Shown here: positions 4,740 through 41,781 of the stretch, one piece after another
How the letters are laid out: every line of letters begins with the position of its first letter
Position numbering within the stretch: the first letter of the stretch is position 1
From: a virus
Virus record (IMG/VR): IMGVR_UViG_3300045988_112575
Span: 1-41,781 of that record
Length of the DNA stretch: 41,781 bases
Strand: one strand, 5' to 3'
Position numbers and translations under genes: made by a program
Notes under the pieces: model-generated
The model's input: the letters and a program-made list of their open reading frames with translations, nothing else
What the model was told of the DNA's origin: nothing
Database searches by the model: none

Positions 4740-5171
4740 ATGCTATTTGTCATTCCCCTGCCCCCCGTGACCAAAAAGAACTCGCAACGCATCATCAAGG
4801 TCAACGGGCGGCCTATCATTATCCCGTCGGCTAAATATGTAACCTATGAGCGGGAAGCTATCAAGTGCTTGCAAGCCTATTTCGGCGGCAAAGAGCCGCC
4901 CAAGATCGACTACCCTTGTAACGTAAAGTGTGAGTTCTACATGCCCACCCGCCGCCGGGTAGACCTGAACAACCTGCTCGAAGCTGCGACGGACGTGCTG
5001 GTTCGTGCCGGTATCCTGGACGATGATAACAGCCAGATCGTGGCATCCCACGATGGAAGTCGGGTGTTCTACGACAAAGAGAACCCGCGAACGGTCATCA
5101 ATATCATGAGCCTAGGCGTGGATTTTGTACCCGTCCACACCGTCCGTATCCAGAAGGAGGAAAACCAATGA
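4740..5171 (+). CDS. rusA: RusA-family Holliday junction resolvase
   Basis: PPVTKKNSQR..., DLNNLLEAATDVLVRAGILDDDNSQI catalytic Asp cluster. Confidence 0.8.
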   Translation: MLFVIPLPPVTKKNSQRIIKVNGRPIIIPSAKYVTYEREAIKCLQAYFGGKEPPKIDYPCNVKCEFYMPTRRRVDLNNLLEAATDVLVRAGILDDDNSQIVASHDGSRVFYDKENPRTVINIMSLGVDFVPVHTVRIQKEENQ

Positions 5172-5740
5172 TCAAAATCAAGAAAAACTGCACCCTGCAA
5201 ACTACGTGGGCGGAGTTGAAGGACAATATTGAGTCCGCGTCTAACCCACTGAATGTCGGCGATGAAATCGACATTGTGCTGAAAACTGGCGAAAAAGTCA
5301 CGCTGGTGTGTGAACGTGTAGGGCACAGAAGCGCAACGTTTTTTACCCAAAATCTGCTTGAAGATACTCATTGCATGAATGAGAATTGGAAGGCCAAAAA
5401 CGGTGAGCAGTTGAGTACGATGGAGGCATATCTGGGCAAGCTCTTCCGCTTGTTGCCTGACGATTTGCAAGAAGTTGTAACTGAGCCGCTCCGATTGTTG
5501 CGGGAGAAGGAGGTTTTTGGAGAAAACCAATACGGAAACCCGGAAGAATGCGAGCAGTTGCCTCGATACCGGAAACTAAAAAACCGCGTGAAACGCCTGA
5601 ATGGAGTTCCGTTTTCATACTGGTTGGCGTCCCCGTATGCGAGCAACTCCACGTACTTCCGCTATGTGCGCAGCGACGGCAGCAGCAACTACGCCACCGC
5701 CAGCTACAGCTATGGCGTGTGCTTCGGCTTTGATATTTAA
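5168..5740 (+). CDS. hypothetical protein with DUF6273-like C-terminus
   Basis: C-terminal FSYWLASPYASNSTYFRYVRSDGSSNYATASYSYGVCFGF pattern. Confidence 0.5.
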   Translation: MIKIKKNCTLQTTWAELKDNIESASNPLNVGDEIDIVLKTGEKVTLVCERVGHRSATFFTQNLLEDTHCMNENWKAKNGEQLSTMEAYLGKLFRLLPDDLQEVVTEPLRLLREKEVFGENQYGNPEECEQLPRYRKLKNRVKRLNGVPFSYWLASPYASNSTYFRYVRSDGSSNYATASYSYGVCFGFDI

Positions 5741-5798
5741 TCAAAAATCTAACAATCGCGGGGCCTTTGTGCCCCGCATGGGAGGGAGAGAAAAACAA

Positions 5799-6350
5799 AT
5801 GAATGAACTGAATCAATACGGTATTCTGTCGGGCAACGAAATCCGACAGCGCATGTCCAAAGGGGATATCATCATCCACCCCTACAACGATCAACAGCTT
5901 GGCCCCAACAGCTACAATCTGTGTTTGATGGACCGGATGCTGGTGTACACGGAGGCGGTGTTAGACCCCAAACGGGACAACCGCACGCGAGAGATCATCA
6001 TCCCGCCGGAGGGTTATGTCTTAAAACCTGGGCGCGTGTACATCGCGTCCACAGAGGAATGGACCGAGACTCGAAACCTGGTCCCCATGCTGGTAGGCCG
6101 CTCTTCTGTGGGGCGGTTGGGACTGGCTGTACACGTTACAGCAGGTTTTGGGGATATCGGCTTCCGGGGCCGTTGGACGCTGGAGCTGGCAGCCACAGAG
6201 CCGGTGCGTATCTACCCCGGCATGGAAATTTGCCAAATCTACTACCACACAATTTGCGGCGTGATTCTGGATGAATACGCTGGAAAATACGTCGGCCAGC
6301 AGGCGGCTACCCCGTCCCGGCTGTTTCAGGAGATGGGGGATACAGAATGA
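5799..6350 (+). CDS. dcd: dCTP deaminase (Dcd/dUTPase superfamily)
   Basis: GPNSYNLCL, GRSSVGRLGLAVHVTAGFGDIGFRGRWTLEL, GMEICQI; true start MNELNQYG with GGGAGGGAGAG RBS (ORF-track start 5601 rejected). Confidence 0.85.
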   Translation: MNELNQYGILSGNEIRQRMSKGDIIIHPYNDQQLGPNSYNLCLMDRMLVYTEAVLDPKRDNRTREIIIPPEGYVLKPGRVYIASTEEWTETRNLVPMLVGRSSVGRLGLAVHVTAGFGDIGFRGRWTLELAATEPVRIYPGMEICQIYYHTICGVILDEYAGKYVGQQAATPSRLFQEMGDTE

Positions 6351-6712
6351 AAGATTTACACACCCTGGACAAATACCGCGACCGGAATTTTGAACGCCAA
6401 TACTACGGCACAAACGGAGATGCTGGAAACAGCGTTTTCCGGGTGCCTGCTGGTGGCAGGATGTTCAACATTGTAGCATCCAACGGCGGCGGCTGGGAAC
6501 ATGTTAGCGTGTCACCGGCCAACCGGAAGCGGAAGAGGGCTCCTACATGGGAGGAAATGTGCGAAATTAAGCGCATGTTTTTCTGGGAGGATGAGACGGT
6601 GGTAGAGTACCACCCCGCCAAGGCGGACTATGTGAATCTGCATCCCCTGTGCCTACACCTCTGGCGGCCTACGGGGGTGGAGATGCCTAAGCCGCCGAAA
6701 ATTTTTGTGTGA
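6347..6712 (+). CDS. conserved phage hypothetical protein
   Basis: GGGWEHVSVS...PTWEEMCEIKRMFFWEDETVVEYHP...LHLW, a motif recurrent in phage early regions. Confidence 0.55.
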   Translation: MKDLHTLDKYRDRNFERQYYGTNGDAGNSVFRVPAGGRMFNIVASNGGGWEHVSVSPANRKRKRAPTWEEMCEIKRMFFWEDETVVEYHPAKADYVNLHPLCLHLWRPTGVEMPKPPKIFV

Positions 6713-6726
6713 GGGGGAGAAAACGA

Positions 6727-7026
6727 ATGGATAATAAAATTCGAGAATTTGCACTTCGCGAAGCTGAACGAAACGCAAAATTGGTTTGGAATCGAGCTTG
6801 GGAAGCTGGATACAACAGGGCACGAGAAGAGTATGCAAACATCCGTGATGGTGAAGCTATTATGGAACCGCCAACAAAAGAGCAGCGGGAGGAATACGGA
6901 AACGACCTCGTTGGCTGGTGTTCCCGTTGCTCCAAACCGTTCAACGGGAGCTGGGCTGGATTGATAAATTTCTGCCCATGGTGCGGCAGACCGATTCTGC
7001 GGAAATTAGGTGAGGTAGATGTTTGA
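6727..7026 (+). CDS. hypothetical protein with C-terminal zinc ribbon
   Basis: ATG 6727 after GAGGGGGAG RBS; CSRCSKPF...FCPWCGRP. Confidence 0.55.
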   Translation: MDNKIREFALREAERNAKLVWNRAWEAGYNRAREEYANIRDGEAIMEPPTKEQREEYGNDLVGWCSRCSKPFNGSWAGLINFCPWCGRPILRKLGEVDV

Positions 7027-7035
7027 GTATATAGA

Positions 7036-7068
7036 ATTTCAATCCACCCTCCCCGTGTGGGGAGGGAC
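7036..7068 (-). CRISPR. Solitary type I-C-like CRISPR repeat unit (no array, no cas genes)
   Basis: Minus strand reads GTCCCTCCCCACACGGGGAGGGTGGATTGAAAT: GTC, 8-bp GC stem, 4-nt loop, GTGGATTGAAAT tail. Confidence 0.7.
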
Positions 7069-7074
7069 GTGTCG

Positions 7075-7086
7075 ATTTCAACACGG
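7075..7086 (-). repeat. Partial copy of the repeat 3' end (CCGTGTTGAAAT), 6 nt upstream of the full repeat on the minus strand
   Basis: TTGAAAT shared with the repeat tail; also forms small hairpin CGTGT/ACACG. Confidence 0.35.
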
Positions 7087-7103
7087 TTAAAAAGGAGAGC
7101 AAA

Positions 7104-7409
7104 ATGAATATCCCGGATAAAATGAAATGTTGGGGAGATTTCCCAGCCATGGTAGGCTATGCTGCCTGCTATGAAGCCCTTGCAGAGGAGTGCATGGAGT
7201 TGGCCTACTGCGCCCTGAAACTCGCCAGAGTTTTGCGGGGAGATAACCCGGTTAAAGAGGGCGGAAGGAGCTACCTGGATAAGTTGGACGAAGAATACAC
7301 AGACGTCGTTTCTTGCGCTATTGCCCTGGAACTGAAACCCAATGCGGATATATCCGTTTGGAAGTGGGAGAGACACAAGCAGCGGCTGGAAGAAATGGAG
7401 GGGAAATAA
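7104..7409 (+). CDS. MazG-like nucleotide pyrophosphohydrolase (small all-alpha type)
   Basis: EALAEECMELAYCALKLARV...LDEEYTDVVSCAIALEL acidic helix pattern. Confidence 0.45.
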   Translation: MNIPDKMKCWGDFPAMVGYAACYEALAEECMELAYCALKLARVLRGDNPVKEGGRSYLDKLDEEYTDVVSCAIALELKPNADISVWKWERHKQRLEEMEGK

Positions 7410-8176
7410 TGGAAGTGCAGCACAACACGTGCCCTAAATGTGGGTGTAACCGGCTTGATATCTTTGCGGTTATGGATAAAACCGGAGATCATGTGTGTGT
7501 CGGATGCAAAAAATGCAGATTCAAAGGCCCGTTAGTAAGAACCAAAGCAGAAGCCTGGCTGTCCTGGGATATCGCAATGAGCATTATTAAGCAAATGGAA
7601 AAGGAAGGAGACGCAATGAAGAAGCACGAACCATGCCCCGTTTGTGGCGAAGCGAACGTGGAAGTCAAGGAGGGTGATATTCGCGGAGAGCACGAATTCC
7701 GCGCTGTTTGCGGAAATTGCGGTTGGTCCGGTCCTGCTTACAACAACCTGAACGATGCGTTGTTGCGCTGGGACGACATAGCCAAGCAAATTCGCAGACA
7801 TGCAGATTCAAAAAGGACGCCAGAAAACGTAGATGTGGTCAAGCACATTGATGCAGTTCTTATGATGAACGCTGAAAAGAAGCGTGCAGAAAAGAAAAAC
7901 GCTACGCGCAAGGAAATTTTGGATGCCGCCGCAACCTGCGTCTGCAAAGAGCGAAACGATCAGTATGGGGAACCAGAAGATTGTTTCCAGGATATCGCCA
8001 ACCTCTGGGCAGCTTACAAAGGAACCAACTTCGACTCCTTTGACGTGGCTATGATGATGTCCCTGTTAAAGGTGGCACGAGCCAAAGCGAACCCTCAGCA
8101 CACAGATAACTACATCGACCTCTGCGGCTATGGAAGCATTGCCGGGGAGTTAGCGAACAAGGAGGAAAACGAATGA
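7409..8176 (+). CDS. fusion of two Lar-like zinc ribbons with a DUF6378-like C-terminal domain
   Basis: CPKCGC...CVGCKKC and CPVCG...CGNCGW each followed by A/W-rich helix; C-term ERNDQYGEPEDCFQDIANLW...LLKVARAK...HTDNYIDLCGY; TAATG coupled start. Confidence 0.55.
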   Translation: MEVQHNTCPKCGCNRLDIFAVMDKTGDHVCVGCKKCRFKGPLVRTKAEAWLSWDIAMSIIKQMEKEGDAMKKHEPCPVCGEANVEVKEGDIRGEHEFRAVCGNCGWSGPAYNNLNDALLRWDDIAKQIRRHADSKRTPENVDVVKHIDAVLMMNAEKKRAEKKNATRKEILDAAATCVCKERNDQYGEPEDCFQDIANLWAAYKGTNFDSFDVAMMMSLLKVARAKANPQHTDNYIDLCGYGSIAGELANKEENE

Positions 8177-8487
8177 AAATCTTTATCTCTCAACCCATGC
8201 AAAACAAAACCGACGCCGAAATCCTGGCAGAACGGGAGCGGGCTATTAAGGCTGCTAAAACCAAGTGGGGTGCTGGTGTGGAGGTCCTGGAGAGTTTCTT
8301 CCAGGACGCTCCCGTCGGAGCAAAGCCGTTGTGGTTTCTGGGCGAAAGCCTGAAAGTTATGGCGGACGCGGATGCTGTGATTTTGTGCCCTAATTGGTGC
8401 CTCACAAGGGGATGTATCGTCGAAGCTGCCGCCGCTAACAGGTATAATATTCCGACATTCGTGATGGTGGATGGGGTTTTGCGCTGA
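8173..8487 (+). CDS. DUF4406 / nucleoside 2-deoxyribosyltransferase-like protein
   Basis: MKIFISQPM..., ...ADADAVILCPNWCLTRGCIVEAAAANRYNIP. Confidence 0.5.
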   Translation: MKIFISQPMQNKTDAEILAERERAIKAAKTKWGAGVEVLESFFQDAPVGAKPLWFLGESLKVMADADAVILCPNWCLTRGCIVEAAAANRYNIPTFVMVDGVLR

Positions 8488-8537
8488 TAAAAACGCGGAA
8501 CATGTGCAAAAAATGCACAAGTTGGAAAGGAGAACCA

Positions 8538-9284
8538 ATGATCGAATTTGAACACACAGAGGTAGTGGGCTGGGAAGCCGCTATCCGGGGGATGAGAAAC
8601 CCTCATAACAGCTGGGATAAGTCGGATAGCAAATACCTGCGCCAAGAAGACGGGCATATCATCGCAAGCCGCTACGAAGTCGGCCCCAACGACCACGACT
8701 TAATGATGCGCCTGGTGAAAGCTGGCACCGACCACCGCAAATTTATGCGGATGATCGTGGTGTATGTGGATGTTACTGCGCCGCTGTATTGGTGGAAGGA
8801 GTTCAAAACGTATCGCGCTGGGAAAAGGTGGGGAGATGAAGAACCGGATGCGTTTGTTATCCCATCGGATTACTTGGAGTACGATATTGAAATGAACTCC
8901 TGCTCCACGATGCACAGTATCCACAAGAAACCGTTCTGCTTGAGCGATTTCAGCTGGGAGGACCTCATGGATTACTGGGAGTACCCATTCAGTTTTAATG
9001 CTGATTACCCAACAAAAGTTTTGCTTGATACAATTGATGTGATAAACAAGTGCCGGGAGATGTACCTCGAAACGGGTAAAAAAATCTGGTGGCGACAGAT
9101 GATTCAGCTTCTTCCAAGCAGCTATAATCAGAGAAGAACTCTGATGCTTAACTATGAAGTGCTTTCTAACATCTACCACGCCCGAAAATGGCATAAACTC
9201 ATCGAGTGGAGTGAGTTTTGTCTCTGGATTGAAGACCTCCCCTACTCCGAACTCATCACGGGAAAGGAGAAGCTGAATGACTGA
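8538..9284 (+). CDS. divergent ThyX-like (flavin-dependent thymidylate synthase fold) protein lacking a clear RHR-x7-S motif
   Basis: LMMRLVKAGTDHRKFMRMIVVYVDVTAPLYWWKEFKTYR resembles the ThyX core; start MIEFEH after GGAAAGGAG. Confidence 0.45.
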   Translation: MIEFEHTEVVGWEAAIRGMRNPHNSWDKSDSKYLRQEDGHIIASRYEVGPNDHDLMMRLVKAGTDHRKFMRMIVVYVDVTAPLYWWKEFKTYRAGKRWGDEEPDAFVIPSDYLEYDIEMNSCSTMHSIHKKPFCLSDFSWEDLMDYWEYPFSFNADYPTKVLLDTIDVINKCREMYLETGKKIWWRQMIQLLPSSYNQRRTLMLNYEVLSNIYHARKWHKLIEWSEFCLWIEDLPYSELITGKEKLND

Positions 9285-9678
9285 CGAACGAGTGAGACGG
9301 GAAAGACGCCGTGTTAAGCGTCTGGCTGCTGGACTGTGTGCGAAATGCGGGAAGTTGCCACATAGGCCCGGCGTCCAAACCTGTGTTTCTTGTTTTGAGA
9401 AACAAAAGGAGATGGACAGGAAAAAATACCTGAGAAAGACAGCAGAAAAGGAACTGGCAAGGAGAGAATCAGAAAGACCTAACACTATCTGTATCGACTG
9501 CAAGCATGCAGTCCCCACAGCGGACGGCAAGTATGGCTGTGAGTGGTCACGATCGTTCCAGCCGGTCACTGGTTGGGTGGCTGTGCGGCGTGATCTGAAA
9601 GTACAGGGAGGAGCCGGGAAAGTCCATCTCTCCCTGTCGTACAAAGTGGAAAGCTGTCCCAAGTTCATCGAAGGATAA
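9277..9678 (+). CDS. basic Cys-rich (multiple CxxC) protein, last gene of the early operon; possible late-gene regulator
   Basis: CAKCG...CVSC...CIDCKH...C; position analogous to late regulators. Confidence 0.5.
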   Translation: MTDERVRRERRRVKRLAAGLCAKCGKLPHRPGVQTCVSCFEKQKEMDRKKYLRKTAEKELARRESERPNTICIDCKHAVPTADGKYGCEWSRSFQPVTGWVAVRRDLKVQGGAGKVHLSLSYKVESCPKFIEG

Positions 9679-9682
9679 AAGA

Positions 9683-9709
9683 AAGGGCCGCCCGGTGTGG
9701 GTGGCCCTT
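9683..9709. terminator. Bidirectional intrinsic terminator between convergent early and late operons
   Basis: AAGGGCCGCCC-GGTGT-GGGTGGCCCTT hairpin flanked by T-runs on both strands. Confidence 0.8.
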
Positions 9710-19693: not shown

Positions 19694-22507
19694 TTATCCA
19701 ATGACCAAAACCGAATATTTCACGCCCTTCGCATTACATACATAGTCATTTGCGGCATCGGTGTTGTACCAGGAATAGGAGCAACCGTCTTCGCTTATTT
19801 TTCCGAACGTACTAACACCGTATGATTGTGACGAATACGCGCCGTTTCTATAAAATGCCGCATAGTTTGTATACTCCGTTTTTAGGTCAGCGGCGTTAAC
19901 CATCAGATTGCTATTATCAGCATAATACGCACCGGAGTACAGCATAATCATAGCTTTTATTCTAAACGGTGCGGTTATCGTTATTGGATTTGCGGCCCCA
20001 TATACCCCGACTCCAATATAGCTCACAACCTGCACCCTCGCTTTATCCCCCAGCTTTCCCAGGTACTCGATAGTGGTGGCAGCGGGGATAGCGGGGTAGC
20101 CGGTGACGGGTTGGTAGCGGTCGATGGTGACCCATCTCGACGAGCTACTGATAGCGCTTATTATCTCCACGCCTGTTTCGGCAGACGCGGGGATATAAAC
20201 AATTTGGTCCGGCAACCTGTACGCAGACCCAGCGCTACTGGAAACGCCATATCTAGTCAATAAGACGAATTTTCCGAGGAGTTCAGTTGCGGCAGAATTA
20301 AAACTCTGGTTGGTCTGCGGGGAACTCAACGATACGCTGCCTGTATCGGAAACAGAGAGAGAACTTGAAACGTTGAGCGCCGTGTCGGTGTTTCCACTGC
20401 TGCCACGCCCAACGATAAACTTTCCCGTCACCATATCCCCCAACGTATACCCCGCCTCCTTCGCATCATCTCCCTCCTGATACGCATTGGGGTTTGTTGA
20501 TACAGGGTAGGTGGTGGTTGTTCCGGCGGGGATTTCGGGAGTTACAGGATAACCGACCACTTTCTGTGCGGCGTTGAAATAGCTAGGGGTTCCGCTGGAT
20601 AATATGCCATAGGTAAATGTAGTTCCAGATGCTACATAGTAAACAACATTACGTTCAATGTTAATTGTTCCTCGATTTGCATACGAATCATCTGTTACGG
20701 AGAAAAACCTATTTCCGCTTCCGATAATATTATCAACGGATATAGTTCCATTACCAGAGACAATGACATCCTTGGTTTCAGGGGATACCATGGAAACATT
20801 GCCAGCTGAATCAACAGATACCGTCTTGCTAACGCTTAACCTGTATATCCACGCCGAATTACTACTATCGGTTGGTGTCAAAAACGCTGTTTTTGTGGCA
20901 GTTCCTAGATTATACCCAGCAGGCACCTCCGGCGTTGGTTCCGTCGTCACCACCGTCTTCCTCCACACATGCAAATCCCCCGCATGTGCCAAAGCGTTGA
21001 ACATGTCATTGGGGGTGGCGGAAGAGGGAAGGCCGATGATGGGAGGGGTGGTGGGTTTGAGGATGTCTCCTACTTTGCTGTTGAGCAAACTCAGAGGAAC
21101 AGGATGGTTGCTCGCTGTGGGCGACAGGATGGAGAGAGGACCGGTCATTGTTCCGCCTGCGAGAGCAAGGTAGTTTTTCAGTAGTTCTGCATGGGCGTCG
21201 GTGGCGGTGTCGTGGGCGCTGACTGCTGTGGTGGCGGTTCCCTTGGGGTCTGCACCGGTTTGTTCGGCGGTGACTTTATGGGGGTTGCTGTGATTAACGA
21301 TATGGCTGGGGACGTTGGAGAGGGCGGCGTTGAAGGCGGTCTCCGTGCCGGTGTAGCCTGCTTCTACGGCAGCGGTAAAGGCACTTTTTCCGTTTTGGCC
21401 GCTCACACCTGCCGGGCCTTGGGGCCCTTCCGGGCCGGTCTCGCCTTGGGGGCCTTGCACACCTTGGATACCTTGGGGGCCTTGCTTGCCCTGTTTGCCC
21501 TCCGGGCCGGTCTCACCCTGCACACCCTGGGGGCCTTGGGGACCTTGGGGGCCGGTGGGGCCTTGGAGCTTGCCAACGGAAGTCCAGTCGCCCTGTGTCT
21601 CCGACCAGATGTAGCACTCCCCGTCGGCTTTGACCATGTACATTTTGTCGTTGCCGTTGGGAATGGCGTTTTTCAGCGCGGCAAGGGTGCTGTAAATGTC
21701 CTCGATGTAGAGGCTGGTGCCGTCCTTACCGGGGGCACCGGCAGGACCTTGGGCACCGGTGGGGCCTTGTGTCCCTGCTTTCCCCTGCGGACCCTGGGGG
21801 CCGGTAGGGCCTTGTTCGCCCTGTTCTCCCTGCACACCCTGTACGCCGGGGATGCCCTGGATACCCTGCGGGCCTCTGGCACCCTGTGCGCCCTGTTCGC
21901 CCTGGACCCCCTGCGGACCCTGCGGCCCACGGACAGACACGGCCTGGGGCGCAATGGCGCTGTCCTGGATGGTGAAGGACATGACGCCGTTTGTGTCGAT
22001 GTTGGGAACGATGCTGGGGCCGGTGGCTCCTCGGTCTCCCTTGTCGCCCTTCACGCCCTGGATACCCTGTTCTCCCTGGGGGCCGGTGTCACCCTTCACG
22101 CCGTGGACGATGGTCTTGGTGCCGTCGTCGGAGACTTCGCAGTTGTCAAACTGCATCCGTCCGCGCTGGGGCAGGGTCTCCCCAGCGGGGTTCATAATGA
22201 TGTGACCGGCAGAACCGGATGCCTGCCAAGTCACGCCGTCCTGGCTGGTTTCCAGTACGCGATCTGCGTTCAGGCGGATGTACTTGAAACCTGCCCCTTC
22301 AGGGAGCTGTACGCTCGTCTCCACGCCCAGCGTTTCCAGAGCGGGAAGCAAGGTGGTGTTGATATACTCCTGGATGGTCAAAGCCCCTTCGTCGAACTTC
22401 TTCTTCAGTTCGGCAGCAGACAGACCGCCTACGTCGTTGGGTTCGTCGTCCAGCTTCTGAACGATGTTTAAGTCCTTGGTCAGCTTTTCTAAACTCATAG
22501 GTATCAC
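19694..22507 (-). CDS. tail fibre with collagen-like triple-helix repeats
   Basis: Three G-X-Y runs (aa 136-164, 193-263, 315-373), long beta-rich C-terminal part. Confidence 0.85.
21389..22102 (-). repeat. Collagen-like G-X-Y coding repeats within the tail fibre gene
   Basis: [19 protein letters not shown]..., [22 protein letters not shown]... Confidence 0.9.
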
Positions 22508-35033: not shown

Positions 35034-35204
35034 ATGAAAAAGATCATCGCTTGCATCTGCATCGCACTCGCGGCCTTCGCCGCCGGACACCTCGCCACGA
35101 TCTACACGCTGGAGATCGAGACAGACGGCGACGGAGACAGCGCCATTGTTACCAGCTTCGGCCAGGAGCACTTCTACGGCATCAACGGCTACGAGATCGG
35201 CTAA
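35034..35204 (+). CDS. small membrane-anchored/secreted protein (56 aa)
   Basis: MKKIIACICIALAAFAAG signal/TM; ATG 35034 after GGAAAGGA. Confidence 0.5.
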   Translation: MKKIIACICIALAAFAAGHLATIYTLEIETDGDGDSAIVTSFGQEHFYGINGYEIG

Positions 35205-35278
35205 CTCTCTTCCGGGCCTGGGCGGTGTCCCACAAAACGCCGCACCCCATAAATCTAAAAACACAGGAGGAAATAATC

Positions 35279-35782
35279 ATGTTAAAAATCTTTGTGAATA
35301 CCTGGGGCAACTACAACAGGAACGGCGCAGAAGGCGGAGAGTGGCTCACTCTCCCGATGGAAGAAGAAGAACTCGATGCTAACCTCTCCCGCATCGCTCA
35401 GAAAATGGGCGATAACTCCCCTGAGTGGGCCATCCACGATTACGAATGGGACAGAGGCTTTTACTCTCCCATCGGTGAGTATGAGAGCATCTCCCGCCTC
35501 AACGATATGGCTCGCGACCTCGCAGACATGGACGAGTACGATTTAGAGAAGTTGGACGCGATGATTGAGGCGTTCAGCTACGACCCAGCGGAAGCTCTTT
35601 ATCGGTTCGACGAATACACCTACTACAACGGCCAGACACTCCGAGAGGTAGCGGAAGAGCTTGTAGAGGAGTGCTACGACATCCCAGAAATCGCACTTCG
35701 CTACTTTGATTACGACGCTTTTGCAAGAGATTTGGAATTTGACGGATACACAGAAACCAAAAACGGTGTCCTTGCTTGTTAA
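35279..35782 (+). CDS. ardA: ArdA antirestriction protein
   Basis: MLKIFVNTWGNYNRNG..GEWLTLPM, EWAIHDYE, very acidic, RYFDYDAFARDLEFDGY; ATG 35279 after AGGAGG. Confidence 0.8.
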   Translation: MLKIFVNTWGNYNRNGAEGGEWLTLPMEEEELDANLSRIAQKMGDNSPEWAIHDYEWDRGFYSPIGEYESISRLNDMARDLADMDEYDLEKLDAMIEAFSYDPAEALYRFDEYTYYNGQTLREVAEELVEECYDIPEIALRYFDYDAFARDLEFDGYTETKNGVLAC

Positions 35783-36491: not shown

Positions 36492-37007
36492 ATGAAAAAA
36501 GTAAATGAGTTTTTCTCCAACATCGACCATCTTCCGCTGAGCAAGCGCAACGCGCTGCGGGATGAAGCAAAAAGCACCTTCTTGCAGGTCGAGCACCCTA
36601 GCACCTACGCCCACTTCTTTAGTTGCTTGCCCGAAGCTATCCCGGAAGAGTTAGAAAGCCGCTGCTATTTCGCAGCCTGCCTCCACTGCTTGTGGCCGGT
36701 TGGCACCACCAACCGCCTGCCGGTAGAAGAAATCCTGTGGAATATAGCAAGGAAAGATGCGCAGAAGCAGAAGAAGCTGGAGCACGATTTGAAAATCCTG
36801 CTTGATTACCAGTGGGGAACCGGCGACATCCTGCCTGGTAAAATCTATCACCTTGCCAAGATTTTCAAAAATGAGGGCTATGCTATCGACTGCGCCGCTC
36901 TGCTGGACGATCTGATAAACTGGGACGACATGAAACAAACCGTGCAACTTAAATGGTCTCGCGCTGTTTACATGAAACCGGGCACAGACGGAATTTTATA
37001 TTGCTGA
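36492..37007 (+). CDS. orphan Cse2/CasB (Cas11, type I-E small subunit)-like protein
   Basis: Length 171 aa, helical; C-terminal IDCAALLDDLINW..(7)..VQLKWSRAVY resembles the Cse2 family signature as recalled from memory; no other cas genes. Confidence 0.4.
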   Translation: MKKVNEFFSNIDHLPLSKRNALRDEAKSTFLQVEHPSTYAHFFSCLPEAIPEELESRCYFAACLHCLWPVGTTNRLPVEEILWNIARKDAQKQKKLEHDLKILLDYQWGTGDILPGKIYHLAKIFKNEGYAIDCAALLDDLINWDDMKQTVQLKWSRAVYMKPGTDGILYC

Positions 37008-37050
37008 CGCCCCTAGACAGCCCAGGAAGGATATGTTGAAGAATGAGGCC

Positions 37051-37104
37051 GGGCCGGGTACTGGTTTTACCCGGCCCGATCATTTTCGTGGCCCCACGAA
37101 AATG
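37051..37104 (+). terminator. Two consecutive 10-bp hairpins ending the accessory operon
   Basis: GGGCCGGGTA-CTGGTTT-TACCCGGCCC then CATTTTCGTG-GCCC-CACGAAAATG. Confidence 0.6.
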
Positions 37105-37126
37105 GTAATGAAAAGGAGGATGCTTT

Positions 37127-37435
37127 ATGTACTATTATCCATTTAAGTACGACCAGATTAAACATCGTTGGCTCTGCATACGTTCCGCTATGCGTATAAA
37201 CGTGGAGACCTGCGAGAGAGCCCTTTCAAGAGCACACGGGCGCAAACGTGATTACATAGTGCGTGCATATAACAATGCAAACGATAAAATAGATGGGTGC
37301 ATTGATGGTTTCATCGATTTCTTTTTCCGCTACGTACACCCCGATTTTTGGAAGGGCGAACCATGGGAAGAGGATATGAAAAATTTTTATAGCATATACG
37401 CAGGCATTGATGAAGATGAACCCGAGTTGTTTTAA
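37127..37435 (+). CDS. hypothetical protein (102 aa), AT-richer moron-like gene
   Basis: AAAGGAGG RBS; follows terminator. Confidence 0.5.
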   Translation: MYYYPFKYDQIKHRWLCIRSAMRINVETCERALSRAHGRKRDYIVRAYNNANDKIDGCIDGFIDFFFRYVHPDFWKGEPWEEDMKNFYSIYAGIDEDEPELF

Positions 37436-37444
37436 TTCGCCCAC

Positions 37445-37473
37445 TAGACAAACCACGAAACTTGTCGTATAAT
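37445..37473 (+). promoter_or_regulatory. Orphan promoter TAGACA-N17-TATAAT
   Basis: Perfect -10 hexamer, 17-nt spacer, no ORF downstream. Confidence 0.5.
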
Positions 37474-37479
37474 GTGGCT

Positions 37480-37552
37480 GTAATCCTTCGCAGGATTCAG
37501 CGCGACAATCCCCCTTCCCGGTTATCAGGACCGAGAGGGGGGATACCTTTTT
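37480..37552 (+). ncRNA. Candidate ~73-nt small RNA (two hairpins, second is an intrinsic terminator)
   Basis: AATCCT-TCGC-AGGATT; then 14-bp ATCCCCCTTCCCGG/CCGAGAGGGGGGAT stem followed by ACCTTTTT. Confidence 0.4.
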
Positions 37553-37570
37553 GACAGAAATTTGACAGGC
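37546..37570 (-). repeat. Iteron pair copy B (reverse complement GCCTGTCAAATTTCTGTCAAAAAGG)
   Basis: 20 of 21 core positions identical to 33898-33918, inverted orientation. Confidence 0.85.
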
Positions 37571-37748
37571 CGGAATAGGTTATTATGGGTAAAAATAGGG
37601 CATTTTAAGGCACAGAAACAGCTCAAAAACGGCCCATAAATAGGCATAGAAAAACCCGCAAACCGTTGGCATTCAATGGCTTGCGGGTTTTCGGTTGTTT
37701 GGATTCAGAGTTTCGCCTAATCAAGACACGACGACATATTAAAACCCC
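37571..37748. other. Probable attP region downstream of int
   Basis: Non-coding; direct repeats AAATAGGGCAT (37593-37603) and AAATAGGCAT (37638-37647) as possible arm-type sites. Confidence 0.3.
37654..37688. terminator. Bidirectional terminator after int
   Basis: ACCCGCAA...TTGCGGGT stem with T-runs on both strands. Confidence 0.65.
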
Positions 37749-38876
37749 TTATTTATCAACGCTTTCCTCGTTTTCTACATCATCCTGACAGAGAAATTGA
37801 TTCAGCCTCTCCGTTGCCGCTTTCTTCTGCCGTTTCCGAATATGCGTATACACGTTAAGCGTGGTTTGTATATCCGCATGTCCGAGAAGATCTTGCATAT
37901 CCTTCATTCCAACGCCAGCTTCATATAAAATCGTGGCGTAATAGTGGCGAAGTTGGTGAGATGTAACAGTCACTCTCCATTTGTCCAACCCGCGCAGTTT
38001 CTTTTTCCCCTCCGGCTGTTCTTTCTCTTCTGCCAACCCCGCAGAGATGCACCACCGTTTCCATGCGCGGTGATACTCATTTGCTGTCATATAGCCGTTT
38101 TTCCCCTTAAATATCATCCCGCTTTTGTTGCGTGGAAGCCTTTGCTTCAGTGGTTCCAACAGGGATATTTCCCGTTCTCCTGCATCCGTTTTCGGCGTTT
38201 TCACGCGCGGGATACCATTGATAAATTCAACGGAATGTTTCACACTGATCAAATTTTTCTTCCAGTCGAAATCTTCCCAGCGCAGGGCCAGCAGTTCGGC
38301 GCGGCGCATCCCAGTAAACGCCTGGAGCAGCGGAAACAGCCCAAATCCTTCACCACCAAATGCCGCCCGCACCTTATCCATTTGTTCGTCTTCCGGCGGC
38401 TCCCTAGTCCCTTTTGGCAGGTTTCCGGGTAGCTTTGCAGATCGCGCTGGGTTGTATTTAATCATACGCTTCAAAATAGCGTAATCAAAAATCCCGTTCA
38501 TCACGTTCTTCCGCTTAGACACAGCACTAAACCCCAACCCCTTCGCCGCTGCGCTCTTTAAAAAGTCCATGATCTCATCAGCGTAAATGTCACCAATGTT
38601 TCGCCCGGAAAACCAGTCCTTCGCTTCGCGCAGAGAGGGCATGTACCCGTGTTCCGTGTTCCAGCCGACCTTATCCACTTCTATCTTAAAATTGAGCCAT
38701 TCGTCCGCCACCGTCTCAAACAGCACAGCCTTCTCCTTGGCTTCCTCTTCGGCCCGGCTCCACTCCGCCATTTTCCGCCTAACTTCCTTTTGAGTTTTTC
38801 CGTAGAAGTATTTGGGTTTCGCCATCCCCGGCAGCTTCACTTGCTCCTGCCACCGTCCGTCTTTTCGTTTGATCAT
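37749..38876 (-). CDS. int: tyrosine recombinase / phage integrase
   Basis: N-terminal SAM-like domain, GMRRAELLAL, HQLRHYYAT, LLGHADIQTTLNVYTH catalytic R..HxxR..H..Y. Confidence 0.92.
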   Translation of the reverse strand: MIKRKDGRWQEQVKLPGMAKPKYFYGKTQKEVRRKMAEWSRAEEEAKEKAVLFETVADEWLNFKIEVDKVGWNTEHGYMPSLREAKDWFSGRNIGDIYADEIMDFLKSAAAKGLGFSAVSKRKNVMNGIFDYAILKRMIKYNPARSAKLPGNLPKGTREPPEDEQMDKVRAAFGGEGFGLFPLLQAFTGMRRAELLALRWEDFDWKKNLISVKHSVEFINGIPRVKTPKTDAGEREISLLEPLKQRLPRNKSGMIFKGKNGYMTANEYHRAWKRWCISAGLAEEKEQPEGKKKLRGLDKWRVTVTSHQLRHYYATILYEAGVGMKDMQDLLGHADIQTTLNVYTHIRKRQKKAATERLNQFLCQDDVENEESVDK

Positions 38877-39164
38877 TGCATTTACCTCCTAGTTGTGATA
38901 CACTAGAGGGGTATCCATACCAGATACAACCCCCATAGAACCGTCCAGACCTGCGTCAACTCCTGGGCGGTTCTTCCCTTTTGTCTATCAGCTCCCAGTT
39001 TCTACCTTTTCTGTTGTTCCTGCGTGGTATCCTATCCCTGGTGACTGTATCACAGCCTCCGCAGGAAGGACCGCGTATAATGGAAGCAGAAATGGAGGGA
39101 ACCAATGAACCTTGATCTAGTCGCACGGCATTTAGATGCCACCAACAACCCGCGAGAGGTGCGT

Positions 39165-39542
39165 TCACTTCTCGCTCTGGCTATCCCAAAACGCATCCAT
39201 CATGGTAGCAAGGCCGACCAAAAATTTAGCCTGGGCGGGAGTGATATCCTCTCCCCGCCGTATCCACCCCCGTTCTACAAGTAAGTCTTCCAGCCACTCC
39301 CTCGTGCTCTTTTCGGGCACGGGGGAATTTCTTTTGTACACGTCCGTTTCTTCGTCTATGAAGTCGTGGATGTCGATTCCAAAATGAGAACAGATTGCTT
39401 GTATATACTTTATCCTCGGTGTTTTCTCTCCTTTCTCCCATGTGGAGACAGCTTTGTTCGATGCCCCAGCTATCTTTCCAAGTTCTTCTTGTGTTAGATC
39501 ATATTCGCTTCGTAAGCGAATGATCTTCTCTGCTATTTTCAT
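39165..39542 (-). CDS. cI-like XRE-family HTH repressor
   Basis: IIRLRSEYDLTQEELGKIAGASNKAVSTWEKGEKTP; divergent from the cro-like gene. Confidence 0.8.
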   Translation of the reverse strand: MKIAEKIIRLRSEYDLTQEELGKIAGASNKAVSTWEKGEKTPRIKYIQAICSHFGIDIHDFIDEETDVYKRNSPVPEKSTREWLEDLLVERGWIRRGEDITPAQAKFLVGLATMMDAFWDSQSEK

Positions 39543-39562
39543 TGGTTTTTCACCTCGCCTAT

Positions 39563-39591
39563 ACTATACCACTATTGATTCTACTTTTCAA
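39563..39591 (-). promoter_or_regulatory. Repressor promoter (TTGAAA-N17-TATAGT)
   Basis: Minus strand TTGAAAAGTAGAATCAATAGTGGTATAGT; contains ATTCTACTTT repeat (39578-39587). Confidence 0.6.
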
Positions 39592-39622
39592 CAAAAAAAT
39601 CTTCTTTTTCTTCATTTTGTAC

Positions 39623-39651
39623 TTGACATTCTACTTTGGTGGAGTTATACT
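39623..39651 (+). promoter_or_regulatory. Early lytic promoter (TTGACA-N17-TATACT)
   Basis: TTGACATTCTACTTTGGTGGAGTTATACT; second ATTCTACTTT copy (39628-39637) in the spacer. Confidence 0.7.
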
Positions 39652-39677
39652 AGACACAACAAAGGAGGTGAGCAACC

Positions 39678-39911
39678 TTGCAATTCACCGTAAAACAGGC
39701 CAGAAACCATGCGGGTCTGACCCAGGCATATATGGCGAAAGTCCTTGGAGTTAATAGAGGAACCTACTCCAAGCTAGAGAAAGACTTGTCGCTTATCACT
39801 GTGGGCCAGCTCTGCAAAATCTCACAAGAAACCGGCATCCCCATCCACGATATTTTTGTACCTTGTGATTCCACTTTAGTGGATTCTGCGGAACGAAAGG
39901 AGAACTTATGA
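39678..39911 (+). CDS. Cro-like XRE-family HTH protein (TTG start)
   Basis: AAGGAGGTGA RBS; GLTQAYMAKVLGVNRGTYSKLEKD. Confidence 0.75.
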   Translation: MQFTVKQARNHAGLTQAYMAKVLGVNRGTYSKLEKDLSLITVGQLCKISQETGIPIHDIFVPCDSTLVDSAERKENL

Positions 39912-40645
39912 CAGACCTGCAAACCTTTAACAGTCCTGAGTTTGGACTGATTCGCACCACAGAGGTAGACAACGAGCCTTGGTTCGTTGGAAAAGACGTG
40001 GCGGCCGCTCTTGGCTACAGTGACACCTCTGATGCCTTGAGGCGACACGTTGACGGAGAAGACAAGCTGACCCGGTGTTTCACCGTGTCAGGTCAAAGCC
40101 GCGAGATGTACATCATCAACGAAAGCGGCCTGTACAGCTTGATCCTGTCGAGCAAGCTGCCGACGGCTAAGAAGTTCAAGCGCTGGGTGACTGCCGAGGT
40201 CCTTCCGGCCATCCGCAAGAACGGCGGGTATATCGCCGGGCAGGAGGCCATGACCCCCGAAGAACTCATGGCAAAGGCCCTTCTCATGGCGCAGAAGACC
40301 ATTGCGGACCGTGATGCACGAATCTCAGCCTTGCAAGTTGAGGTTGCCGTCGCACAGCCCAAGGCCGCCTACTTCGACGAGCTGGTTGACCGCAACCTGC
40401 TTACCGGCATCCGCGAGACGGCGAAGGAGCTTGGTATCAATCAGAAAGTCTTTGTAGATTTCCTGCTGAACAAGAAGTACCTGCACCGGAGCAAGAGCGG
40501 CAAGCTGACCCCCACTGCTGGCAGAGGGGACGGCCTCTTCGAGATGAAGGAGTGCTTCAATGAAAAGACCAGTTGGGCCGGCACTCAGGTCATGGTCACG
40601 CCCAAGGGCCGTGAGACGTTCCGTCTGCTGTGTCAAGGCATGTAA
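39908..40645 (+). CDS. antirepressor (Bro-N domain plus KilAC/ANT-like C-domain)
   Basis: FGLIRTTEVDNEPWFVGKDVAAALGY, FKRWVTAEVLPAIRKNGGY, C-terminal AKELGINQKVFVDFLLNKKYL. Confidence 0.8.
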   Translation: MTDLQTFNSPEFGLIRTTEVDNEPWFVGKDVAAALGYSDTSDALRRHVDGEDKLTRCFTVSGQSREMYIINESGLYSLILSSKLPTAKKFKRWVTAEVLPAIRKNGGYIAGQEAMTPEELMAKALLMAQKTIADRDARISALQVEVAVAQPKAAYFDELVDRNLLTGIRETAKELGINQKVFVDFLLNKKYLHRSKSGKLTPTAGRGDGLFEMKECFNEKTSWAGTQVMVTPKGRETFRLLCQGM

Positions 40646-40688
40646 AAGGAAGACCGCCCAGGTTTCCCTAGACGGCCTCCTACGGTGG

Positions 40689-41252
40689 TTATTCGGTTGG
40701 CGGGTGACAGCGGCTACAAGGCGTGTAACCGTCCTCTACGGCCTCTGAGAGTGTTGTCTCTATCTTGCTTTGTCTCAGGTAAGAGCAACTCTCTCTGTGG
40801 TACTTCTCCCCTGTCCTGGTCACGTAGACGATGATCTCATCACTGGCACTTGATGAGGTTTCAGTTTCGTCCAGGTCTCCGGCGGAGCAGGTGTCCTTCG
40901 CGTTGGTGTCGTAGCTCGGTTCTGGTTCCGGTTCTGGTTCCTCTTTTGGTTCCGGTTCCGTCTCCGGTTTCTCTGTTTCCTGGTTGCCAAGAAGAGCGTT
41001 CTTCTCTTCCGTGAGTTCCTGGACCTGTGCTTTCAGGTTTGCAACAGCGGTTCCGTATCGCTCTAGTTCGGTTTGCTTTTCTTCGAGTTTAGCAAAGTAA
41101 ACATCTTGGTTATTCTCGCCGACATACTCACCGGCAGCGAATCCAGCCCAAACCGCGATAACCATCGCGACGACGATCACAATGACATGCCACGCTTCCC
41201 AAACTCTCTTGGGTTTCTCTGGTGTTTCAACAGACTTGTTTTCGTCTTCCAT
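40689..41252 (-). CDS. single-pass membrane protein with coiled coil, PE-rich linker and C-terminal Cys/His metal-binding motif
   Basis: ATG 41252 after AAGGGGGTG; TM WHVIVIVVAMVIAVWAGFAAG; YHRESCSYL...PCSRC; opposite strand to the early operon. Confidence 0.6.
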   Translation of the reverse strand: MEDENKSVETPEKPKRVWEAWHVIVIVVAMVIAVWAGFAAGEYVGENNQDVYFAKLEEKQTELERYGTAVANLKAQVQELTEEKNALLGNQETEKPETEPEPKEEPEPEPEPSYDTNAKDTCSAGDLDETETSSSASDEIIVYVTRTGEKYHRESCSYLRQSKIETTLSEAVEDGYTPCSRCHPPTE

Positions 41253-41516: not shown

Positions 41517-41781
41517 GCGATTCCGGGCACACTTCCCGAAAACCTGGGCGAAATCAGCGCTGGGACGTGAACGCGATCCGCTGGAACGCTGTTGCAGGTA
41601 CCGACCGCAAGCACACCAAGGGCTGTGAGGGATGCCGCTATCATGACTATTACGGGGATTGTATTTACATCCTCGTAGAGGGCCACCGAAGAGGCGTCCC
41701 CATGAAACCAGGCGGCGGATGCAGCAAAAAGACCGTGGGCAGAGCCAAGAGTGGGAAGTTTATTCTCACCGACACCCAGAA
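41513..41781 (+). CDS. 5' portion of junction-spanning ORF (continues at base 120 after collapsing the overlap, ends 306)
   Basis: ATG 41513 overlaps upstream stop (ATGA); 41702 equals base 40 and is in frame (189 nt). Confidence 0.6.
   Translation, partial: MSDSGHTSRKPGRNQRWDVNAIRWNAVAGTDRKHTKGCEGCRYHDYYGDCIYILVEGHRRGVPMKPGGGCSKKTVGRAKSGKFILTDTQ
41663..41781. repeat. Terminal direct repeat copy 2
   Basis: Identical to bases 1-119. Confidence 0.95.

Follow-up and report, generated by a model that had tools for sequence, protein, structure and literature searches.

A solitary type I-C CRISPR repeat at a deletion junction in a temperate gut phage, a possible footprint of recombination with a host array

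The 41,781-nt genome of a temperate gut phage, IMG/VR record IMGVR_UViG_3300045988_112575, which was analysed over its whole length and is called the window here, carries on its minus strand, from 7068 to 7036, one solitary copy of a CRISPR repeat. Type I-C arrays whose spacers target the same phage use a repeat identical to this 33-nt unit, which stands exactly where about 1 kb of DNA, including a protospacer, is missing by comparison with the closest relative of the phage. We tentatively suggest, with a little less than even confidence, that the unit is the footprint of a recombination between phage and host array that gave escape from CRISPR, and not a dedicated RNA gene. The identity of the repeat, its link to a host and its membership in the class of solitary repeat units (SRUs) are firm; its function is not. 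The locus provides a natural case in which a phage-borne solitary repeat, the exact host I-C variant and host spacers against the same phage are tied together at nucleotide-level resolution.

The repeat unit and its host counterparts

An original prediction, made from the letters of the window alone, had described a solitary 33-nt unit with a G/C stem-loop, and its sequence, fold and single copy were all borne out. The 33-mer was found once in the window when up to 3 mismatches were allowed (0 matches in 100 shuffles), and its predicted fold, at about -17.6 kcal/mol, has a 2-nt 5′ overhang (GU), an 8-bp G/C stem, a 4-nt loop and an 11-nt 3′ tail. The tail motif of the repeat, taken alone, showed no enrichment in the window. 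The fold is that of an I-C repeat, namely 32–33 nt with a 2-nt 5′ overhang, a 7–8-bp G/C stem, a 4–5-nt loop and an 11-nt 3′ tail that begins with UGG (UGGAUUGAAAY), and the same architecture has been given for substrates of Cas5c (PMC8524198). A Rfam scan of 6500–7600 returned chance matches only and nothing for the unit, while in INPHARED the 33-mer had no meaningful match and the region no relative. The unit lies between two plus-strand open reading frames (ORFs), 6727–7026 and 7104–7409. It had been said to fill the 77-nt gap between them, which holds for the called genes, but a 23-codon remnant ORF crosses the unit.

When one genome per species was scanned with the stem and tail as query, the loop being left free, 11 loci were found, all of them arrays with a period of 66–69, in Oscillospiraceae, Faecousia or unnamed Clostridiales metagenome-assembled genomes (MAGs) from rumen and gut; a scan of metagenomes gave 67 further loci. 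A search for the 33-mer in candidate hosts had been proposed as a check on the original prediction, and 25 of the 70 arrays recovered have a consensus repeat to which the unit is identical at 33/33 positions, loop included. In the Faecousia sp. MAG L011, an array of the identical 33-mer follows the genes cas3-cas5c-cas8c-cas7c-cas4-cas1c-cas2, of whose products Cas5c, Cas7/Csd2, Cas4, Cas1c and Cas2 score above the NCBIfam cut-off and Cas8c/Csd1 narrowly under it (215.3 vs 218.65 bits). The assignment to type I-C is thereby confirmed by 33/33 repeats beside an I-C cas operon. Array orientation was set by the leader end (…TTGTGC-N3-TTT-N-GCT), which stands directly 5′ of GTCCC, and by degenerate terminal repeats; in the form …(A/T)TTGTGC-N3-TTT-N-GCT, this leader end abuts the first repeat in arrays L003–L013, and L105 has such a leader with one repeat only. 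The Oscillospiraceae I-C arrays thus share with the unit the 33-nt repeat and its sense orientation, and have spacers against this phage with a TTC protospacer-adjacent motif (PAM), whereas a leader, a spacer, a second repeat and I-C cas genes are all absent from the phage.

The spacer set comprised 1,044 unique spacers from 72 arrays, 32–38 nt in length (one of 40 nt). Those that match the window (Table 1) define a cluster of protospacers at 36685–40990, with 20058–20094 outside it, whose PAMs are mostly 5′-TTC, and further spacers of the set match relatives of the phage. Among well-matched protospacers of the window and its relatives, 15/20 have a 5′-TTC PAM. Each array that matches the window uses exactly the 33-mer with the ACAC loop, and the four spacers of L101 with matches in the window stand consecutively in their array.

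The deletion junction and its possible origin

The original prediction missed that the unit stands with nucleotide-exact boundaries at the junction of a deletion of about 1 kb. The unit is absent from about 25 relatives, and 20 viral contigs that encode the downstream 101-aa protein all lack it. Homology by blastn to the relative L035 stops at 7035 (…GTATATAGA|) and restarts at 7069 in L030 and at 7068 in L110 and L111; the novel DNA is exactly one repeat (7036–7068), with a 1-nt ambiguity at its right end. Past the junction, L035 continues with a 97-aa gene (MFEYIEKV…) and two more small genes (L035 3310–4288), all missing from the window. In the closest relative, three small accessory genes of about 1 kb lie between the same two flanking genes where the window has the unit. 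The window retains the first 17 nt (5–6 codons) of the 97-aa gene, fused through the antisense repeat into the remnant ORF, whose stop lies 12 nt ahead of the ATG of the next gene.

The lost segment holds, at L035 3834–3867, the protospacer of a spacer (L058_8162) whose array uses the identical repeat. This spacer matches L035 at 33/34 positions and three other relatives at 34/34, and its neighbours in the array match the adjacent dCTP-deaminase region. On the strand of the repeat L035 reads …CACTTTC|TCTATATACTC…, so that the ancestral sequence has TTC, the I-C PAM, immediately 5′ of the flank that was kept; the chance expectation for this triplet at the junction is 0.029.

On the other side the unit has cut into a palindrome native to this phage family, of which only a remnant is left. 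In most of the relatives without a repeat the palindrome, of the form TAACCGTGT-N8-ACACGGTTA, lies ahead of the downstream gene; TAACCGTGTTGAAATCGACACGGTTA stands just before the ribosome-binding site in most of the 20 contigs with that gene, and two Logan contigs (L110 and L111) have the same palindrome with its centre oriented as in the window. The locus had been read as a handle, 6 nt and then a full repeat, an anatomy that did not survive: the supposed handle, CCGTGTTGAAAT on the minus strand, is the right half of the native palindrome, and an origin from a repeat is ruled out by the presence of the palindrome in relatives that lack the repeat. The only local similarity to the repeat near the unit, 10/12 nt, likewise falls inside the palindrome. 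Among the relatives the palindrome is found just upstream of the 101-aa gene in L015, L018–L022, L025–L031 and L110–L112, often with a second one, AAACTGGCCGAAATCGACCAGTTT, after it. It stands at a mosaic boundary, with upstream genes that vary among relatives, and its 8-nt centre occurs there in both orientations (TGAAATCG and CGATTTCA); it may serve as an operator, form a hairpin in RNA or be a hotspot of recombination.

Both neighbours of the unit are on the plus strand, which places the sense repeat antisense to the early operon. A consensus scan of both strands near the unit found no promoter-like or terminator-like site, and with a position weight matrix (PWM) the best score on the minus strand was 5.9 bits within 380 nt upstream of the unit and 7.7 bits anywhere up to 9700, whereas the evident promoters of the phage (near 34.5 kb and 39.6 kb) score 13–17 bits. 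The two scans agree with the earlier failure to find a convincing minus-strand promoter. Read-through from the late operon is an unlikely source of sense RNA, because late transcripts should be kept from the unit by a bidirectional terminator-like hairpin 2.6 kb away. Cas5c reads the cut site and the downstream UGG/5′ handle and does not read the loop (PMC8524198). The plus-strand hairpin has the same stem followed by ACGUGU, and since no UGG or handle lies 3′ of that stem, only minus-strand RNA is a predicted substrate of Cas5c. Given that the sense strand of the repeat opposes the early operon and that no promoter can be recognised for it, we infer that the unit would yield little or no Cas5c-binding RNA in this genome.

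We suggest that the origin of the unit, and possibly its whole significance, lies in recombination with a host array. A phage targeted by a I-C system would have crossed over with a spacer-repeat-spacer stretch of the array, or would have used that stretch to repair damage by Cas3; the event would have removed targeted DNA, and the tail of the repeat would have taken the place of the TTC PAM of the left-hand protospacer, with CRISPR escape as the immediate gain for the phage. The fused 23-codon ORF would keep the upstream and downstream genes translationally linked, which could explain why a deletion of about 1 kb was tolerated. This origin is favoured because the boundaries are exact, a targeted segment is lost, an ancestral PAM lies at the junction and the unit occurs in one genome only, together with the lack of a signal for sense expression. 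Since the unit is missing from about 25 relatives, there is no sign of long-term maintenance, and the event would be recent.

In staphylococci, phages reportedly recombine with CRISPR loci through spacers, and single crossovers are said to mobilise CRISPR loci, in the work of Varble et al. 2019. The parallel is that homology between spacer and protospacer could join a phage to an array at exact repeat boundaries; a double event that leaves one repeat and deletes the targeted DNA, unlike those single crossovers, is what we propose here. A novelty less radical than an RNA that acts in antisense would be that SRUs in general are scars of spacer-guided recombination between phage and array, which also deletes targeted DNA. 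In L001 5171–9366 (IMGVR_UViG_3300035512_000648, catalogued as viral), a I-C cas7c-cas4-cas1-cas2-leader-first repeat stretch is fused to an antisense, C-terminally truncated gene for the terminase large subunit. This join, which may be a genuine recombinant of phage and array or a chimera that the assembler made through a spacer, lends weak support as a second join of array and phage; as a second solitary copy it was discarded, having a cas operon, a leader and the first repeat at the join.

Several observations weigh against a recombination footprint. The PAM on the other side varies with the spacer that is assumed, being TTT for one of 33 nt and TTC for one of the rare length of 37 nt, and TTC coincides with the junction in one case only (p about 0.03). 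None of the 1,044 unique spacers matches either flank of the unit, the similarity being at chance level, and the postulated pair of spacers is unseen. In a second antisense SRU lineage, L238/L239 compared with L242, the unit likewise takes the place of a variable intergenic segment, and there the ancestral TTC is absent and the junctions have a few extra bases; TTC at the junction was not upheld as a general rule, this comparison being negative and the repeat-less relative (L237) of the L042 lineage too diverged. Absence of a promoter in silico is no proof of absent transcription, and an origin by recombination is compatible with later use as a decoy. The same repeat family looks purposeful in the L002/L042 phages, where it stands in sense orientation with a tRNA on one side and a small gene on the other, and RNA anti-CRISPRs (Racrs), one of type I-C among them, are experimentally active (PMC10651486).

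If a footprint is nevertheless what the unit represents, arrays can serve as recombination partners that reshape phage genomes, and some of the catalogued SRU or Racr candidates are by-products of CRISPR escape and not RNA genes, so that orientation and expression need checking before SRUs are counted as anti-CRISPRs.

Known classes and rival explanations

SRUs have already been described as a class (Faure et al. 2019; Camara-Wilpert et al. 2023), of which more than 2,000 viral examples are known (PMC10651486), and a loop variant, GTCCCTCCCCGCACGGGGAGGGTGGATTGAAAT (GCAC), has been typed I-C and listed as an SRU in an IMG/VR contig (Camara-Wilpert et al., PMC10651486). By the criteria of SRUFinder the unit is a genuine SRU, of the class already catalogued as Racr candidates: it is a high-scoring match (33/33) to a known repeat on a viral sequence, here a circular temperate phage; it is intergenic, overlapped by the remnant ORF, with no further full or partial repeat in its 100-nt flanks; and it has no cas association, the sole cas-like gene being a type I-E cse2 homologue 29 kb away. 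What is unusual in this SRU is its antisense placement without a promoter and its nucleotide-exact, scar-like junction; unlike known SRUs, it is found in one genome only and at an exact deletion junction. Viral mini-CRISPR arrays also bring a host-identical repeat onto a virus, with a spacer between a full repeat and a full or partial one, whereas the unit has neither a spacer nor a second or truncated repeat. Such a mini-array, made with the identical repeat, was seen at L094 1102–1181 (JAEEGL010225677.1), on a short contig, as a full repeat, a 33-nt spacer and then the first 14 nt of a second repeat.

The best of the alternatives is that the unit is a Racr decoy, which on the sequence we consider rather unlikely. 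Minus-strand RNA would be bound and cleaved by Cas5c, and a guide-less assembly of Cas5c, Cas7c and Cas8c would titrate Cascade subunits, guide-less titration having been shown for RacrIF1 and RacrIC1, the latter an inhibitor of I-C interference (PMC10651486). The unit is 33/33 identical to the repeat of its cognate host, with the UGG and the 11-nt handle included, hosts actively target the phage, and the repeat family is already listed as a I-C SRU. Like the validated Racrs, RacrIC1 among them, it is a single intergenic viral repeat of a subtype that matches the host, with no I-C cas genes and no second repeat. The phage is temperate and has other anti-defence genes (ArdA, Lar-like and Cse2-like), and in a crude survey some solitary units antisense to their flanking genes came with a strong promoter, that of L153, for instance, scoring 15.4 bits. 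Validated Racrs, however, are expressed in sense from their own promoter or an acr operon, and neither a promoter within about 250 bp nor co-transcription was found here in silico; no promoter rises above background within 380 nt of the unit or as far upstream as the terminator, and by comparison with Pfam, PHROG and PDB no acr gene is recognisable beside the unit. Racrs act in a dose-dependent way and require strong expression. The unit lies opposite to a densely packed early operon, has a coupled mini-ORF reading through it and occurs in one genome among about 25 relatives. Of the earlier proposal that the unit is a SRU and Racr candidate, membership of the class stands, and evidence of sense-strand expression is wanting. 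The PWM was also applied upstream of 45 I-C-like solitary units, where it gave medians of 7.9 vs 8.4 bits for sense and antisense flanks; as these were not separable, it cannot calibrate Racr expression.

In favour of a decoy role, the repeat family also occurs in another phage lineage, oriented in sense and conserved while its flanks differ. L002, L042 and the published 3300021400_001747 are one element, carrying the repeat with the GCAC loop in sense orientation. In L002 1–160 and L042 111–410 a phage tRNA-Gln precedes the unit by 16 nt and the ribosome-binding site of a 52-aa gene follows it after 4 nt, all three being co-oriented. The unit is conserved at 33/33 positions between differing flanks. 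Neither it nor the 52-aa gene occurs in L237, whose tRNA is directly followed by the next gene. Possibly the two form a module of a racr and a small protein, with a 5′ end set by tRNA processing.

A second alternative takes up the anti-repeat of the original prediction: the early polycistronic mRNA would contain a 33-nt stretch that perfectly complements the host repeat, and pairing with the repeats of precursor CRISPR RNA (crRNA), nucleating on the 11-nt tail, would block processing by Cas5c or make double-stranded RNA for RNase III. The plus strand is expected from the gene layout to be transcribed, and thermodynamically the duplex is strongly favoured (-72.4 kcal/mol against hairpins of -17.6 and -18.0 kcal/mol; with flanks, a ddG of about -22 kcal/mol). 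No comparative support and no precedent in the literature was found, however, and the two partners, being stable 8-bp G/C hairpins with 4-nt loops, would pair poorly on kinetic grounds. The site would be covered by ribosomes on the mini-ORF. Cas5c binds repeats while these are being made, and mature Cascade keeps the handles buried, which also counts against pairing. Antisense placement is not rare: I-C-like solitary units between co-directional ORFs in IMG/VR were 12 in sense and 5 in antisense, a split that is indicative only, coming from greedy ORF calls that are poor in G+C-rich contigs and from loci some of which are duplicates, and that is compatible with random orientation; the clean solitary copy in L002/L042 is in sense. 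Anti-repeats of trans-activating crRNAs (types II and V) are likewise transcribed strands complementary to the repeat, but type I-C uses none, and here the complement would be perfect, full-length, located in an mRNA and owned by the phage. We regard an antisense RNA anti-CRISPR, distinct in mechanism from Racr decoys, as very improbable for this unit. Should the unit act as RNA on whichever strand, a direct test is straightforward now that the cognate host system and the protospacers under attack have been identified.

Equally remote is a chimeric assembly, in which the assembler jumped from phage to host array through a spacer and back through the adjacent one, skipping about 1 kb. The exact boundaries and the ancestral TTC fit such a spacer-repeat-spacer path, L001 may be a join of this kind, and the genome is known from one sample only: look-ups of exact proteins returned only the same phage in one European Nucleotide Archive (ENA) sample, giving no independent population evidence for the junction. 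Yet the window has a 119-nt direct repeat at its termini (1–119 and 41663–41781; unique length 41,662 nt), which marks it as circularly closed, and an ENA scaffold of 41,717 nt (BioSample SAMN02333946), the unique length plus 55, is 100% identical over 5104–9409, junction included. Two assemblies, with overlaps of 119 and 55 nt, therefore have the same junction; both overlaps, and with them both k values, exceed the spacer length of 33–37 nt, and the reads would then have to hold k-mers that span phage DNA beyond the spacer and the repeat. A double mis-join in a circularly closed 41.7-kb contig is improbable, and the pair of spacers was not found.

The least likely reading is a role for the unit as DNA or in cis, as a homology patch for recombining into host arrays and interrupting them or as an intercistronic plus-strand hairpin that affects how RNA is stabilised or processed. 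Published work has proposed integration through SRUs, the phage is temperate and the hairpin occupies the place of part of the native intergenic palindrome, but in 0/78 array-bearing loci does prophage DNA like that of the window extend past the repeat, a stretch of 33 bp recombines poorly, no U-tract follows the hairpin, and a generic hairpin would leave the 33/33 identity, unpaired tail included, unexplained.

Neighbouring genes and other features of the phage

Table 1. Positions, in the window, of the repeat unit, matched protospacers and other features.
Feature	Position	Strand	Remarks
Solitary type I-C CRISPR repeat unit, GTCCCTCCCCACACGGGGAGGGTGGATTGAAAT	7036–7068	-	Characterised by sequence, copy number, hairpin and array identity
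Stem arms of the unit	7047–7054 and 7059–7066
11-nt tail, the crRNA 5′ handle, UGGAUUGAAAU	7046–7036	-
Palindrome remnant (ancestral TAACCGTGTCGATTTCAACACGGTTA)	7069–7088		Left arm cut off by the repeat; single occurrence in the window
Remnant ORF of 23 codons, MFEYIEFQSTLPVWGGTCRFQHG*	7020–7091	+	Opens with the start of the 97-aa gene, crosses the antisense repeat
Upstream 99-aa zinc-ribbon-like gene (CxxC...CxxC)	6727–7026	+	96% aa identity to the L035 copy
Downstream 101-aa gene	7104–7409	+	76–98% aa identity in 20 related viral contigs, all without the repeat
Lar-like restriction-alleviation zinc ribbon fused to DUF6378	7412–8176	+	Anti-defence candidate
Bidirectional terminator-like hairpin	9683–9709		Stem of about 11–12 bp, T-rich on both sides; between plus-strand early and convergent minus-strand structural genes
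ArdA antirestriction protein	35051–35782	+	Anti-defence candidate
Divergent homologue (171 aa) of Cse2/CasB (Cas11e, type I-E small subunit)	36492–37007	+	From Pfam, PDB and relatives
Protospacer, L066 spacer	6943–6977	+	32/35; TTC PAM at 6940–6942; 58 nt from the unit
Protospacer, L058 spacer	20058–20094		32/37
Protospacer, L101 spacer	36685–36720		34/36
Protospacer, L101 spacer	37490–37525		34/36
Protospacer, L101 spacer	38388–38422		35/35
Protospacer, L084 spacer	38509–38543		33/35
Protospacer, L101 spacer	40990–40956		32/35

The window encodes a tyrosine integrase, a Bro/ANT antirepressor, ArdA, RusA and DnaB, and the phage is temperate. Its plus-strand early and nucleotide-metabolism genes extend to about 9680 and include those for a dCTP deaminase, a DUF7694 protein and the Lar-like/DUF6378 protein. 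Racrs often, though not always, lie close to acr genes; comparison of the neighbours of the unit with Pfam, PHROG and PDB gave no match to known anti-CRISPR proteins.

The original prediction had stated that there was no cas gene anywhere in the genome. This is correct for type I-C, for which tblastn found no Cas homologue in the window, but a divergent Cse2/Cas11e homologue of type I-E is encoded beside ArdA and the integrase. Its match to Pfam CRISPR_Cse2 is below the cut-off (E=3e-4), three Cse2 structures top the PDB search, and its 135 relatives among representatives include bona fide Cse2 and Cse1-Cse2 fusions; a relative with 68% identity lies on another mobile element without cas genes. 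The first of the L101 protospacers falls within the gene. By analogy with the Cas11-like AcrIB4, the protein is a candidate subunit-poisoning anti-CRISPR against type I-E.

Of the sigma-70-like promoter matches that score highest in the genome, one stands at the head of the minus-strand late/structural block near 34.5 kb. A further pair, close together near 39.6 kb, lies beside the integrase and antirepressor genes and may be a divergent lysis-lysogeny switch.

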